DNA of 46,478 nt, from contig JBAXMC010000002.1 of the NCBI GenBank assembly GCA_037134495.1, positions 1 to 46,478 on the forward strand. Reading direction: 5' to 3'. A model generated the notes under the pieces. That model saw only the letters and a list, made by a program, of their open reading frames with translations. It was not told where the DNA came from and ran no database searches. The position numbers were made by a program, and so were the translations under genes. The stretch is from Myxococcaceae bacterium (lineage in GTDB: Bacteria; Myxococcota; UBA727; JABDBI01). Below are positions 16,820-21,225 of this stretch, in pieces (within the stretch, counting starts at the first letter, position 1; every line of letters starts with the position of its first letter).

Positions 16820-17922
16820 CCAAGACCTCTTCCGCGTTTGGCCAAAGGACTTCCCACATACGTATGCTTGATTTTTCCAACGCTATAAATGCGTCGCTCA
16901 GCAAGCGTTTTGGATGCCATTAGGGTTGTGATTTTTTCTTCTTTAGCGATATTTAAAACTTGAGTCACAATGTCGTAAATGCCACTGGCTTGACGCATTG
17001 CTTGTCTTCTTTCGTATCTGATAAGCTCATTGGCAACGTTGATAAGACCTCCCGCACTAATCACAAAGTCTGGGATGTACAAAATATTTCGTCGTTCTAA
17101 CTCTGCACTGTGTTTATCTTCATCACCCAGGACATTATTGGCGCTGCCGGCTATGAGTTGGCATTTGAGTCGAGGAATCGTGTCGTCATTGACGATTCCG
17201 CCTAAAGCACAAGGGATAAAAATAGTGCAGGGGACATCGTAGATTTTATCGGGCGCTACAAACTCGATGCTTGGAAATTCTGTAGTGGTACGTTTGATGT
17301 TTTCAGCATTGACATCACTGGCAATAACTTTCGCACCAGCTGGGATTAAATGCTGCAGCAAGTGATAGCCAACTTGACCGACGCCTTGTAGAGCGACGGT
17401 CATATTTGCGAGAGAATCAGAGCCTGTTTTAAATAAAAGCGCTGCTTTAATGCCTTGAAAGACTCCATAAGCCGTAACCGTGCTGGGATCTCCAGAACCT
17501 CCAAAAGCTCTGTTAATACCGGTGACATATTCTGTCTCCATCCAAACCCAAGCCATATCTTGTACGGTTGTGCCGACGTCTTCTGCTGTGATATATCGAC
17601 CCCCTAGAGTTTGAACGAATCGACCAAAAACCCGAAGAAGTTTTTCGGTTTTCATGGTTTTAGGATCGCCAATGATCACGGCTTTTCCGCCACCTAAGTT
17701 AAGTCCTGCAGCTGCAGACTTGTAGGTCATGCCTCTGGAGAGTCTTAAGGCGTCTTTGAGGGCGTCTTGCTCGCTTGCATAGGGCCACATGCGACAACCG
17801 CCTAGAGCGGGGCCTAGAGTGGTGTTATGAATGGCGATAATGGCTTTAAGGCCGCTTTCTTTGTCATTGCAAAAAACAACTTGTTCGTGATCTTGTTTGC
17901 TTAGTTCATCGAAAATACTCAT
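16816..17922 (-). CDS. ldh: Leucine dehydrogenase (Glu/Leu/Phe/Val dehydrogenase family)
   Basis: EQVVFCNDKESGLKAIIAIHNTTLGPALGGCRMWPY and GLNLGGGKAVI closely match Bacillus LeuDH as I recall it. Rossmann motif GVGQVG. Confidence 0.8.
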   Translation of the reverse strand: MSIFDELSKQDHEQVVFCNDKESGLKAIIAIHNTTLGPALGGCRMWPYASEQDALKDALRLSRGMTYKSAAAGLNLGGGKAVIIGDPKTMKTEKLLRVFGRFVQTLGGRYITAEDVGTTVQDMAWVWMETEYVTGINRAFGGSGDPSTVTAYGVFQGIKAALLFKTGSDSLANMTVALQGVGQVGYHLLQHLIPAGAKVIASDVNAENIKRTTTEFPSIEFVAPDKIYDVPCTIFIPCALGGIVNDDTIPRLKCQLIAGSANNVLGDEDKHSAELERRNILYIPDFVISAGGLINVANELIRYERRQAMRQASGIYDIVTQVLNIAKEEKITTLMASKTLAERRIYSVGKIKHTYVGSPLAKRGRGLG

Positions 17923-18716
17923 TCTACAAAAACCTCACCTTCAAAAACGTAACGGGCAGGGCCCTTCATCTGGATCTGTAAACCATGCGTGGTTGGACGA
18001 GCGGTGATATAAAGGTTTCCGCCCTTTAAGTGAACCGTTATTTCTTCATTTTCAGGTAATTGGTTTTGTGAAACGAGTATGGCAACCGAGGCACAAGCAC
18101 CTGTTCCGCAGGCCTCAGTCTCACCCACACCGCGTTCAAAGACCCTGATATTAATTTCATGTAGATTTTTAATCTGAACAAATTCTGTGTTGACACTGGG
18201 GTCTATTAACTCTGTTTGAACATCGCCTTCAAAAACCAAATGAGGATTTCCCATAGAGACACGATTTCCGGTGATTTGTGCGATGCCCATGTCTATAGAC
18301 CATTGTCCTGATTCGTAGGTACAAGTTTTGGGGCCTGCATCTGTTTGAATGACTGTTACAGAGTGACCCTGGTCATGAAGCCACTGGGCGACGCATCTGA
18401 TGCCGTTGCCGCACATTTCAGCAATACTGCCGTTTGCGTTGAATATGCGCATATGGACCTCACCCGTCACGCTGAGCGTGCCACCCTCTCCACCAAGTGG
18501 AGAGGGTAAATCTGATTTAATTCCCCTCTCCACTTGGTGGAGAGGGGTTAGGGGTGAGGTTTCCGAAAAAAACACAAAGATTAATCCATCTGCTCCAATG
18601 CCCAGGTGTCGATCGCAGAGATTTTTTACTTGCTGAGGTGTTAAACAGGGATTTTTAGAAATAAGAATAAAATCGTTGCCGAGGCCTTCGTATTTGTAAA
18701 ACGATGTTTTTGCCAT
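17919..18716 (-). CDS. dapF: Diaminopimelate epimerase carrying an in-frame 34-codon repeat-element insertion
   Basis: YEGLGNDFI, catalytic MCGNGIRC and ACGTGA motifs. There is an extra ~29-34 aa between GADGLIFV and HMRIFNANGS compared with E. coli DapF. Confidence 0.85.
   Translation of the reverse strand: MAKTSFYKYEGLGNDFILISKNPCLTPQQVKNLCDRHLGIGADGLIFVFFSETSPLTPLHQVERGIKSDLPSPLGGEGGTLSVTGEVHMRIFNANGSIAEMCGNGIRCVAQWLHDQGHSVTVIQTDAGPKTCTYESGQWSIDMGIAQITGNRVSMGNPHLVFEGDVQTELIDPSVNTEFVQIKNLHEINIRVFERGVGETEACGTGACASVAILVSQNQLPENEEITVHLKGGNLYITARPTTHGLQIQMKGPARYVFEGEVFVE
18458..18559 (-). repeat. Double-hairpin palindromic element (REP/MITE-like), 102 bp, in frame within dapF
   Basis: TIRs cctcaccc...ggggtgagg. 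Two perfect hairpins: ccctctccac-caa-gtggagaggg and cccctctccac-ttg-gtggagagggg. The first ~35 nt of its reverse complement are near-identical to 41949 onward. Confidence 0.85.
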
Positions 18717-19320: not shown

Positions 19321-19962
19321 ATGGTGGCTAACCAACTGATTGAGCAATATGGGTCTTTTGTTCGTTCGATTGCACGGCAGGTGAAAAAGTCTGTTTCTCC
19401 TCGAATCGAACTAGATGACTTGATCGCTTATGGCATGACAGGCTTGTTAGAAGCCGCTGAACGGTTTGATGAGAAGCAAGGGGCTAACTTTACGACTTTT
19501 AGCTATTATCGTGTTCGAGGGGCTATCTACGATGGTCTTCGGGGTATGGGTTGGGTCTCGCGCAATGAATACCAAAAAATTAGATTTGGCGAACAGGCAA
19601 ATGCTTATTTAGAAAACGCATCTGGAGCAAAGTCTGAAGATCTCGAAGATTTAGCTTCACAAGTCAATAGTTTGGTGACGATTTTTGTGACTTCTCTTGA
19701 AGGCCTGGAAAAGCAAGATTTTGAAGATACTAAGCTTCAGGCACAAGATGACAGGCTGTTAGAACTTGAACTCAAAAATACGCTTAAAAAAGCGCTTCTG
19801 AGATTACCTAAGGCTGATTTAGAGCTGATTACGCTTTATTATTTTAAAAACATGAGCTTGGAAGAAGTGGGCCAAAAAATCGGCCTTTCTAAATCCTGGA
19901 CCTGCCGTAAGCATGCTCAAGTGATAGAAAAGCTTGGGGCTTTGATGCGTGGGGCTTGCTAA
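19321..19962 (+). CDS. Sigma-70 family RNA polymerase sigma factor (FliA/sigma-28-like size and layout)
   Basis: Region 2: DLIAYGMTGLLEAAERFDEKQGANFTTFSYYRVRGAI. Region 4 HTH: YYFKNMSLEEVGQKIGLSKSWTCRKH. Confidence 0.75.
   Translation: MVANQLIEQYGSFVRSIARQVKKSVSPRIELDDLIAYGMTGLLEAAERFDEKQGANFTTFSYYRVRGAIYDGLRGMGWVSRNEYQKIRFGEQANAYLENASGAKSEDLEDLASQVNSLVTIFVTSLEGLEKQDFEDTKLQAQDDRLLELELKNTLKKALLRLPKADLELITLYYFKNMSLEEVGQKIGLSKSWTCRKHAQVIEKLGALMRGAC
19882..19957. repeat. 76-bp direct repeat copy 1 (3' end of the sigma gene)
   Basis: ggcctttctaaatcctggacc...gatgcgtggggctt is identical base-for-base to 20747..20822 (compared by eye). Confidence 0.9.
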
Positions 19963-20116
19963 AAATTATAAACCTTAGATCCCAGATCATTGTTTTGCTC
20001 GTGGTCGTTATCGAGTTCTCTGAGAATTTCTAGAAGTGATATCCATGTCTGCTTGAATTCTAGACCACCTATTTGAGCGCTTGTGCAACAATGTTCCCTT
20101 GTTTTTCTAAACTCAT
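19959..20116 (-). pseudogene. Probable AbiEii-type toxin gene remnant (truncated and out of frame)
   Basis: An ATG at 20114..20116 overlaps the AbiEi stop (ATGA coupling typical of abiEi-abiEii) but reads only MSLEKQGNIVAQALK*. A second frame (the 72-aa ORF) runs to the repeat boundary at 19959. There is no full-length partner gene. Confidence 0.35.
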
Positions 20117-20688
20117 GAGAATAGCTCCACATAAGGTAAAATTCGATAACCAATGTTAAGTTCAAGAGCCATTTCATAGATAGCTCCTATTGAAGTAAGA
20201 TTCTCATTGATAGCTCTCCGTAGGCTGTCAACGGCTACTTGACTTCCAATGATTTGTGGATGTGTGAATGCATCAGCGATTGTGCGTGGGATGTTCGTTA
20301 TCCAAAATCCTTGGCGCTTATCGATGCCAGCATTCCATTTTGGCGATCGTATCCTGACCAAATGCAAGCCTTGATGACGCGAAAGTTTTGAGTGAGGCAC
20401 CATGATCCAGGTTTTCTTTGGGATTTCATCTGTCAGATTGTAATATGATAAAGCGGATAACAGACAAATTGCAGAAGGTTCTCCAACCCAGAATGTTGCT
20501 ACTTTAAACCATTCTTCTTCTGAGATATCGCCAGCAGAAGCTCGAAAAACGCCTCGCCCCAGTCGTTCAAGGATTCCTTGAGTTAGCATTTGTTCAATTT
20601 GGTAACGAGAGACTCCATTTTCTTTAGCGTCAGAGGCTGAAAAGAGCCCTGTTCGCAACGATTCTGGTAACACATTCATATTACGCAT
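20113..20688 (-). CDS. AbiEi-family (type IV TA) antitoxin/transcriptional regulator
   Basis: N-terminal wHTH LFSASDAKENGVSRYQIEQMLTQGILERLGRGVFRA plus a C-terminal AbiEi_3-like region. Size ~190 aa. Confidence 0.7.
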   Translation of the reverse strand: MRNMNVLPESLRTGLFSASDAKENGVSRYQIEQMLTQGILERLGRGVFRASAGDISEEEWFKVATFWVGEPSAICLLSALSYYNLTDEIPKKTWIMVPHSKLSRHQGLHLVRIRSPKWNAGIDKRQGFWITNIPRTIADAFTHPQIIGSQVAVDSLRRAINENLTSIGAIYEMALELNIGYRILPYVELFS

Positions 20689-20746: not shown

Positions 20747-20822
20747 GGCCTTTCTAAATCCTGGACCTGCCGTAAGCATGCTCAAGTGATAGAAAAGCTT
20801 GGGGCTTTGATGCGTGGGGCTT
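20747..20822. repeat. 76-bp direct repeat copy 2 (orphan copy of the sigma gene 3' end)
   Basis: Identical to 19882..19957. It is followed by cgtga (would read ...GAS*), whereas the gene copy is followed by gctaa (...GAC*). Confidence 0.9.
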
Positions 20823-21225
20823 CGTGAAAATCAACTAAATTAGACGTTTTGGCCATTCCGGGCTTGCGCTTATGGGTCGAATGAGGCCAAGATCGGCCAA
20901 GGAGTTTTCTAATGGCACAGTTGCCGGTTGAAATACAGCTTACATCTGAAATGTGTAGGCACCAATCGATAATGTCCCCTTTGTTCCCGCATATTTTAGT
21001 CTGCGTACGCTAAAGCTTCGGCAGACAGGTCGCCGCCGTTAGCGGCTTCCCTGTTTTGAGCCTGTAAGGGCAGAGCTACTTGGTATACTCAGCGCTGATA
21101 ATGATTTTAGATCCAGATTTCAAAATTTACGCAAAGCTTTTTTCTTTTTTATTCCCCTAACCTGCTTATTTTTAAAGACTTTTAAAATTAAAAATTCTTT
21201 TTTCAACAAATCGTCTGGCACCTGT

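Follow-up and report, generated by a model that had tools for sequence, protein, structure and literature searches.

The DNA stretch analysed here (46,478 nt of contig JBAXMC010000002.1 from a Myxococcaceae bacterium; hereafter, the window) carries dapF, the gene for diaminopimelate epimerase, together with a short palindromic repeat element that sits inside this gene and keeps its reading frame. The 265-aa open reading frame (ORF) matches the Pfam family DAP_epimerase (E 8.6e-40) and, in a PDB search, DapF structures (E 1e-36); its nearest named relatives, at 58–60% identity, come from metagenome-assembled genomes (MAGs) labelled Myxococcota or Deltaproteobacteria. The gene overlaps the next one by 4 nt in an operon-like manner, and a leucine-dehydrogenase gene lies downstream. 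In E. coli, dapF is not known to be strictly essential. The features at the insertion locus are as follows, the element being bounded by terminal inverted repeats (TIRs).

17919–18716, minus strand: dapF coding sequence (diaminopimelate epimerase), 265 aa, host of the insertion; identified from the ORF and from Pfam, PDB and Foldseek matches
18457–18560, unstranded: TIR-bounded element ACCTCACCC ... GGGTGAGGT, 104 nt; delimited from the sequence, the empty-allele alignment and folds
18462–18557, minus strand: net insertion, 96 nt, codons 54–85, read SPLTPLHQVERGIKSDLPSPLGGEGGTLSVTG; delimited by DNA alignment with three other contigs (L001, L002 and L003) and by protein alignment

The insertion is documented by comparison with relatives. 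A search of 5.8 billion proteins returned this protein and 17 close orthologues (205–239 aa), and the protein alignment held 17 sequences, i.e., the 265-aa DapF and 16 orthologues (13 close, 3 more distant; 227–276 aa). The 32-aa segment is absent from all 16 of the latter. Where the window protein reads ...FVFFSET[32 aa]EVHMRIF, the closest orthologue reads ...FVFFSGT-EAHMRVF, and the contig of this orthologue (L001, 85.7% nucleotide identity) represents the empty allele: ...TCTGGAACC|GAAGCCCAC (GGAACC|GAAGCC) as compared with ...TCGGAAACC[96 nt]GAGGTCCAT at the filled site in the window. Since this nucleotide alignment supplies the empty site, the net insertion, with a GC content of 57%, amounts to 96 nt or 32 codons, rather than the 102 bp and 34 codons given in an earlier account made from the letters of the window only (the sequence-only reading). 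The orthologue comparison proposed there otherwise came out in its favour: relatives lack the segment, and the insert is homologous, as DNA, to intergenic copies of the element in the window.

The outer 3 and 5 nt of the element (ACC and GAGGT) overlap host codons, and the empty allele largely has them already (ACC GAA GCC). Both junctions show only microhomology with the element ends (ACC; GA-G-), and no target-site duplication is seen at dapF on comparing the filled and the empty alleles, the host ...GAAACC and GAGGTC... being not duplicated. Among the three copies in the window, an empty allele for such a junction comparison was at hand for the dapF site only. Identical filled alleles, coding for the same 265-aa protein, occur in two other independent metagenome assemblies (L002, L003), one contig coming from ENA ERZ27300165 (99.975% identity over 12 kb) and one from JGI 3300020157 (100% identity). 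Hence, an assembly artefact is excluded. The insertion is fixed in the sampled population, and its entry into dapF is placed after the split from the 85.7%-identical relative.

The element is built of two units in inverted orientation with an AT-rich spacer between them; every unit combines a perfect GC hairpin with a mirror-symmetric purine block (referred to below as the third block), joined by a connector. Its parts are listed here.

18458–18506, minus strand: left arm; in plus-strand order, the complement of the third block CCTCACCC, a mini-hairpin connector (18468–18480) and the 10-bp hairpin (18484–18506)
18507–18522, unstranded: AT-rich 16-nt spacer TAAATCTGATTTAATT, from direct reading; looks like a shortened form of the spacer in the copy at 41947
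18523–18559, plus strand: right arm, forming a full triplex-motif unit of type A, CCCCTCTCCAC-TTG-GTGGAGAGGGG-TTA-GGGGTGAGG; from the sequence and a check of base triads

On the plus strand, the TIR words cctcaccc (18458–18465) and ggggtgagg (18551–18559) enclose a perfect 10-bp hairpin CCCTCTCCAC-CAA-GTGGAGAGGG at 18484–18506 and a perfect 11-bp hairpin CCCCTCTCCAC-TTG-GTGGAGAGGGG at 18523–18547, just as the sequence-only reading described them; the translation quoted there is likewise correct. The left arm harbors an extra mini-hairpin, CACGC-TGA-GCGTG (18468–18480), between its 10-bp hairpin and the terminal block, so that a 17-nt mini-hairpin connector stands in place of the TTA found at 18548–18550 in the right arm. 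The predicted folds are very stable, both as RNA (-76.4 kcal/mol, z = -10.4) and as DNA (-44.5 kcal/mol, z = -10.4), and the pattern of the hairpin core is matched 5 times in the window as opposed to 0 times in 100 shuffles. Two further copies, which the sequence-only reading had placed at 41949 and 26252, are real, alignable and intergenic.

41947–42069, unstranded: two-armed copy flanked by convergent genes, one TauE-like (stop at 41944) and one TonB-like (stop at 42068)
26251–26320, unstranded: single-hairpin copy with TIRs, its terminal blocks being GACCTCTCCC ... GGGTGAGGTT, between convergent SCPU-domain and AAA-ATPase genes

An arm of the 41947–42069 copy is 95% complementary over 42 nt to 18521–18562. 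The spacers of this copy and of the dapF element look related as well (TAAATCTGAT-TTAATT vs. TAAACTTGATGAAGATAATTTAATT), which suggests that the short form itself multiplies. The TauE/SafE-family ORF next to the two-armed copy (41576–41944) is only 122 aa long and covers profile positions 2–109 of 237, with its stop abutting the element; it could be a natural half-size protein or the result of a truncation at the repeat.

Several lines of evidence bear on whether DapF tolerates the insert. The element is free of stop codons in two of the six reading frames, one of them being that of dapF (one of the three in the dapF orientation). The frame and both catalytic Cys motifs (MCGNG, ACGTGA), said by the sequence-only reading to be intact, are found so in the alignment, which also has all invariant DapF residues in place. 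With the insert removed, dN/dS (the ratio of nonsynonymous to synonymous divergence) against L001 is 0.12 (dS 0.47, dN 0.056), a value indicative of purifying selection on dapF. One frame on the other strand is open through the element too, and this alone gives rise to an antisense ORF of 78 aa (18400–18636, plus strand) that crosses it and is probably not a gene.

The AlphaFold2 model of the protein has a mean predicted local distance difference test score (pLDDT) of 87 and a predicted template modelling score (pTM) of 0.82. Confidence is high across the fold save for residues 54–82, located between strands 44–50 and 87–93, which show pLDDT below 50 and no secondary structure. A Foldseek search with the model recovered DapF crystal structures (E 9e-26, TM-scores 0.72–0.75); in the alignment with the solved DapF 9mro, query residues 5–52 correspond to chain residues 4–55 and query residues 86–152 to chain residues 59–131, with 3 residues in 9mro where the 265-aa protein has 33. 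By these models, the insertion position is a tight beta-hairpin turn of the N-terminal domain, and the most economical reading of the insert peptide is a disordered Pro/Ser/Gly/Glu-rich loop jutting from this turn, i.e., a surface loop of the kind that the sequence-only reading had suggested modelling for. A profile search with insert peptides in the 5.8-billion-protein database yielded 14 candidates, with one 38-aa match.

Presumably, the insertion survived because its length is a multiple of three, the frame in this orientation is stop-free, and the peptide can loop out of the hairpin; under these three conditions, the enzyme would carry a disordered loop of 32 residues and in all likelihood still work. 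With moderate confidence, then, the loop may be considered translated and the enzyme functional, judging from the open frame, the invariant residues, dN/dS and the structure model; the tolerance surmised by the sequence-only reading thus appears to hold. Two points weaken this reading: the pairwise dN/dS cannot isolate the post-insertion period, and expression might suffer from the -76 kcal/mol structure into which the mRNA can fold over the insert.

The same facts can be turned into a different account, namely that the insertion inactivated or crippled dapF, which would then be a young pseudogene or dispensable thanks to another enzyme or pathway for meso-diaminopimelate, the frame being intact merely from recency. 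The insert is indeed recent, being absent from the 85.7%-identical relative and having its hairpins still perfect; the structure predicted within the coding part of the mRNA is very stable, and no more than 46 kb of the genome are visible. At the same time, the frame is open through an element having stops in four of the six frames, all invariant residues have been kept, and three assemblies, each from a different sample, have one and the same allele. The insert sits in a turn, leaving the AlphaFold2 fold undisturbed, and the repeat is found in frame in many conserved genes of other bacteria, including those of aminoacyl-tRNA synthetases. Overall, we regard loss of function as unlikely and return to the tolerated loop as the reading of the gene.

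The element has relatives with a long record. BoxC, a repeat of E. coli, was reportedly first described by Bergler et al. in 1992 at the fabI/envM locus and is said to have been studied by Bachellier in 1999; to our knowledge, these triplex-motif repeats have been without a known origin or function for about 30 years. The units recognized in the window share the block organization of this family, in which a pyrimidine block is followed by two purine blocks, one complementary to it and the other a mirror block able to pair with the first in antiparallel orientation. The BoxC repeat was renamed twice, first as the PIT (potential intrastrand triplex) element and later as TM_ECO (Holder et al. 2015, PMC4666352; Hoyne/Maher 2000 is named with it among the sources on the family). 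Its consensus is CCCTCNCCC N3-6 GGGNGAGGG N3 GGGNGAGGG, with a 3-nt connector of type A (TTA) or type B (CCG/TCG/CTG), and it forms a purine-motif intrastrand triplex in vitro (PMC4666352). According to the same work, TM_ECO has 23 copies in MG1655, “always located intergenically”, and 3610 occurrences across 262 genomes of Proteobacteria; it goes together with genome rearrangement on a local scale, and no phage association was reported for it in E. coli.

The correspondence with the window units goes down to single positions. A scripted check found the third-strand triads (G*G, A*A, T*A) to be allowed throughout in both dapF arms and in the right arm of the 41947 copy; the right dapF arm has nine of them, each a purine-motif triad of the permitted kind, which is also the case in E. 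coli BoxC no. 2. The left arm of the 41947 copy, on inspection by eye with GGAGAGGGG taken as R1, likewise has none but permitted triads. The 3-nt connectors are there as well, i.e., TTA at 18548–18550 and, in the 41947–42069 copy, which consists of two inverted units, TAA (the reverse complement) in the left arm of type A and CCG in the right arm of type B. The E. coli MG1655 pair at 164547–164631, with BoxC arms of types A and B, can be aligned with the window units; the two agree in their blocks, in where the single A and T stand and in both types of connector. A hairpin loop of 3–6 nt, the multi-copy state, the occurrence in inverted pairs and the lack of an adjacent transposase complete the likeness.

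The differences concern register and arrangement. The window units read CCCCTCTCC N7 GGAGAGGGG TTA GGGGTGAGG, and do not match the strict TM_ECO consensus exactly, their G-runs lying one base off, with G/C runs of 4+2 where the consensus has 3+3 (GGAGAGGGG/GGGGTGAGG as opposed to GGGAGAGGG/GGGTGAGGG in E. coli BoxC), a one-base register variant that weakens the assignment, though many units from other phyla bridge the variants (GGGAGAGGGG). The third blocks of the window element point outwards and act as TIRs, whereas those of E. coli BoxC pairs point inwards, and one dapF arm has a mini-hairpin connector unlike E. coli BoxC. Unlike the E. coli copies, reported as always intergenic, the dapF copy is intragenic and in frame; the two other window copies are intergenic. 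By its sequence, then, the dapF element is a variant member of the BoxC/PIT/TM family and not strict TM_ECO, in view of the 4+2 G-runs, the outward third blocks and the mini-hairpin connector.

It could be argued that any G-rich triplex-forming hairpin would look like this, so that the likeness to BoxC would be convergent and the window repeat an independent, lineage-specific MITE (miniature transposable element with inverted repeats). The register shift, which leaves the strict pattern unmatched, and an arm arrangement that is the reverse of that in E. coli pairs speak for such convergence. However, the block sequences are common to both, even in where the single A and T stand; the connectors TTA and CCG belong to types A and B of E. 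coli and occur paired in one element; units with an identical 18-nt core form a continuum in many phyla; and both arm arrangements are found around the nuclease cassettes described below. Convergence is therefore no better than an outside chance, and membership in the BoxC family is retained.

Rfam offered no other identity, since the element has no match at gathering thresholds, and the E-value mode gave sub-threshold hairpin look-alikes alone (miRNA precursors; rnk_leader), rejected as noise. The weak match to the enterobacterial rnk leader (18481–18521, minus strand) scored 20 bits, the gathering score being 50; this leader family may contain a BoxC-like hairpin.

Another proposal credits the insert with a function, i.e., co-option and maintenance by selection, either of the mRNA hairpins (as an RNase III site, a ribosome pause or attenuation of the leucine-dehydrogenase gene) or of the loop as an interaction surface. 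The extremely stable RNA structure with its long near-perfect duplex, the operon-like overlap and stems without mismatches would suit this proposal, yet recent insertion equally predicts perfect stems, and the intergenic copies show the same features. Moreover, there is no conservation beyond this one population, and E. coli PIT elements have no promoter or terminator activity (PMC4666352), so that co-option seems improbable. The weakest account, that the segment is missing from the mature protein due to translational bypassing (e.g., take-off at GAA52 and landing at GAG86) or removal at the RNA or protein level, has in its favor the Glu codons flanking the insert and the strong hairpin and is hardly credible, given that the presumed take-off codon is not followed by a stop, Rfam has no intron or ribozyme for the segment at its gathering thresholds, and the junction is not that of an intein (the insert ends ...VTG|E, without a C-terminal Asn and a +1 Cys/Ser/Thr).

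The repeat unit is widespread. A scan for CCTCACCCC-NNN-CCCCTCTCC in one genome per species of GTDB gave at least 120 stretches from Chloroflexota, Bacteroidota, Cyanobacteria, Planctomycetota, Acidobacteriota, Armatimonadota, Proteobacteria, lineages of the candidate phyla radiation (CPR) and others. The motif is followed by a matching hairpin arm in almost every listed case and often also by a distal GGGGTGAGG. Among the matches listed, the unit with its hairpin recurs at about 150 sites in many phyla, forming the above-mentioned continuum around the identical 18-nt core.

Residence in genes is common as well. Stop-free ORFs extend at least 60 codons to both sides of 43 of the 151 strict matches (120 genome loci), and short units lie inside the Pfam envelopes of CN_hydrolase (L007), Dus (L049), Tex_YqgF (L023), QueG (L078) and a PMT_2 glycosyltransferase (L093). 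Since units are in frame in real genes elsewhere, the dapF case is one instance of a general property. These in-frame copies across phyla contrast with the always intergenic picture of TM_ECO in E. coli; such frequent residence in genes may be new and, if confirmed, would matter more than the dapF case itself.

The scan also brought to light a few peculiarities of the units. A third connector type, with a 4–5-bp mini-hairpin instead of TTA or CCG (e.g., GTCC-GAA-GGAC, CACGC-TCA-GCGTG), is present in the window (18466–18483) and in distant phyla (L107, L084, L049, L056, L068, L085); units of Rivularia, Prolixibacteraceae, Nomurabacteria, Chloroflexota and Bipolaricaulia have it. Head-to-tail tandem arrays occur with a period of ~36 nt in a Polyangiales MAG and of ~41–42 nt in an Anaerolineales MAG (L011, positions 1–140, and L090, positions 470–819). 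The CCTCACCCC-NNN-CCCCTCTCC unit is abundant in viral and proviral contigs of IMG/VR, with at least 120 stretches (L206–L325; e.g., L251, L214, L210, L281) and up to 7 copies in 4 kb among the contigs listed.

At four of the in-frame loci, the insert is larger and consists of a unit, a domain of ~110 aa and another unit. This domain matches DUF559 (PF04480) with an E-value near 1e-35. LeuRS carries it at two separate sites (L024, L099), and the remaining hosts are MetRS (L010) and a Type ISP restriction enzyme (L084). By tblastn, DUF559 was found in 6 of the 120 loci selected by the repeat, and in all 6 it is bracketed by units within ~70 nt. The association was approached from the other end with 80 metagenome loci chosen solely by the similarity of their proteins to DUF559 (a four-sequence alignment). 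A BoxC-type hairpin lies within 200 nt of DUF559 in 54 of these 80 loci, and on both sides in 31; the 35.5 kb around DUF559 contain about 100 hairpins and the other 163 kb contain 30, i.e., a ~15-fold enrichment. In 16 of the 80 loci, DUF559 is embedded in an ORF extending at least 100 aa to both sides. The hosts identified with Pfam, for these 16 loci and some one-sided cases, are given below.

LeuRS: L161 and L167 (two copies each), L183
MetRS: L166, L172
MetH: L135, L154
MnmE: L128; TsaD: L181
MmeI/Eco57I/Type ISP enzymes: L126, L156, L178, L188
Others: a DNA methylase, a type I R subunit, a branching-enzyme-like protein and a His-biosynthesis protein

Judging by domain order, the inserts appear recurrent at the same region of MetRS, LeuRS and MetH (L010, L024, L084, L099, L126–L205). 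Both arm arrangements occur around the cassettes: in the LeuRS cassettes L024 and L099, the third blocks are outside, as in the window (DLTPNPSP...GRGVGGEV), and a complete window-type double unit stands on each side of DUF559 in L139, L152 and L177.

A trace of the same neighborhood is seen in E. coli itself.

L125, E. coli MG1655 1351205–1351432 and 1351755–1351800: ycjD and its BoxC surroundings

The DUF559 gene ycjD adjoins fabI/envM and ends ...RRSPSP* within a degenerate BoxC hairpin, and BoxC copy no. 9 is located 170 nt downstream of it; the fabI/envM locus is where BoxC was reportedly first described. Just upstream of ycjD, there is a perfect 16-bp inverted repeat CACCTCATTCTGACAA...TTGTCAGAATGAGGTG, different from BoxC.

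The literature on DUF559, ycjD, BoxC/PIT and EDxHD contained no paper tying DUF559 to BoxC, which is absence of evidence only, as most subscription-journal papers were outside the coverage. One DUF559-containing gene has been assigned to the EDxHD homing-endonuclease family (PMC9403480). The coupling of units to in-frame DUF559 in essential genes may thus be new, and would matter more than the dapF insertion if confirmed.

Among the known systems with which the element can be compared, the one named by the sequence-only reading was the Rickettsia palindromic elements (RPEs; Ogata et al. 2000, summarized in PMC10969869), which are in-frame palindromic repeats in unrelated housekeeping genes. 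The analogy holds: in both cases, short palindromic repeats are in frame in unrelated genes and translated, so far as sequences and models tell, as an extra peptide compatible with the fold, as seems to be true of dapF and the other hosts. The suggestion of an unrelated family fared differently, as the family is the already known BoxC/PIT/TM_ECO, present in many phyla. RPEs are ~150 bp long, AT-richer and confined to Rickettsia, whereas the window family is GC-rich, triplex-capable, found in many phyla and linked to a nuclease domain; no relation in sequence was seen, the comparison being one of features. Membership in the RPE sequence family is unlikely because of the composition (57% GC) and the host phylum.

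Sequences of the REP type (repetitive extragenic palindromes), their doublets (REPINs) and the associated tyrosine transposases by which they are mobilised (RAYTs) offer another parallel (PMC3733652). They are GC-rich imperfect palindromes in inverted doublets with a spacer that fold into a long hairpin, and they are non-autonomous and linked to one small nuclease-type gene flanked by the repeats. The partner here is, however, DUF559, of PD-(D/E)XK or Vsr-like type, and not an IS200/IS605-type Y1 transposase, and REPs are extragenic. On direct reading, no unit has a GTAG or CGTC head, and no RAYT was seen, so this identity was rejected. Integron attC sites and CRISPR were considered and rejected on the features of the element.

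Bacterial MITEs with in-frame copies (ERIC, BOX, Coxiella QMITE; PMC10969869, PMC5896051) resemble the element in their TIRs, which are present here (ACCTCACCC / GGGTGAGGT), in stable fold-back and in occasional in-frame ORF fusion. The absence of a target-site duplication at the dapF empty-allele site and of an evident ancestry from an insertion sequence (IS) sets the element apart from them. A classical MITE derived from an IS with a DDE transposase was rejected on the former ground and for want of a parent IS with the same TIRs and a transposase in the window; the sole recurrent coding partner seen elsewhere is DUF559.

EDxHD or Vsr-like homing endonucleases and inteins likewise place a small nuclease domain inside conserved genes (of aminoacyl-tRNA synthetases, MetH, MnmE), as exemplified by I-Bth0305I (Taylor et al. 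2011, PMC3239194) and by “fractured genes” (PMC2677866). The DUF559 cassettes differ in having neither an intron nor a splicing domain, the in-frame nuclease being joined by hairpin-encoded peptides, and from the dapF copy the nuclease is entirely absent. In terms of the unit-flanked cassettes, the dapF element has the same arm type and arrangement as elsewhere and no DUF559 between its two units.

Taken together, these findings make it probable that a recent, nuclease-less and MITE-like element of the BoxC/PIT/triplex-motif type has landed in dapF in frame and is read as a tolerated loop. The units would be part of a system that, when complete, has a DUF559 (Vsr-like / PD-(D/E)XK) nuclease lying between them, and this nuclease may either mobilise the units in trans or home into their spacers. 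Correspondingly, the nuclease-less elements might be deletion derivatives mobilised in trans or landing pads for the nuclease gene in the spacer, and the dapF insert either a cassette derivative or a cassette landing pad; since its spacer is only 16 nt long, it would be a nuclease-less derivative of a cassette. Because the arms encode Pro/Ser/Gly-rich linkers in open frames, such a system could occupy essential genes without introns or inteins. Microhomology without a target-site duplication favors break repair or template switching over DDE cut-and-paste.

That the nuclease-less elements and the unit-flanked DUF559 cassettes form one system is put forward tentatively, as slightly less than an even chance. 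To the same tentative degree, the BoxC/triplex-motif repeats may be the arms of a widespread selfish system built on a hairpin-bracketed DUF559 nuclease, with the dapF insert as its minimal, nuclease-less stage. Several observations restrain this proposal. Thus, tblastn of DUF559 domains against the 46-kb window gave no match, so nothing shows that this genome carries one, and DUF559 was absent from the 120 unit-bearing IMG/VR contigs (940 kb). Near the E. coli TM_ECO copies, no transposase, integrase or mobility genes were found (PMC4666352). Finally, the association gives no direction, and the nuclease could be a passenger homing into the repeats.

The dapF case provides a nucleotide-resolved filled/empty example of a repeat joining a core enzyme outside Rickettsia, and it shows protein loops born from selfish DNA. 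The DUF559 coupling ties the question of the origin of BoxC to something testable. If the nuclease acts on the hairpins, this would represent a new route for a mobile element into coding sequence and would explain the instability seen at BoxC sites.

Two further features of the window lie apart from the repeat family. A 98-nt direct repeat (19882–19979 and 20747–20844), whose copies share 91% identity and hardly differ over their first 76 nt, is a duplication of the 3' end of a sigma-70-family gene (19321–19962). The two copies bracket an 865-bp segment with an AbiEi_4 antitoxin-like gene (20113–20688, minus strand), an arrangement suggestive of an insertion that took place at the 3' terminus of the sigma-70-family gene and regenerated this end; no integrase is visible. 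The other feature is an ORF of 3116 aa (29290–38640, minus strand), whose sole Pfam match is DUF3638 (residues 2086–2291).

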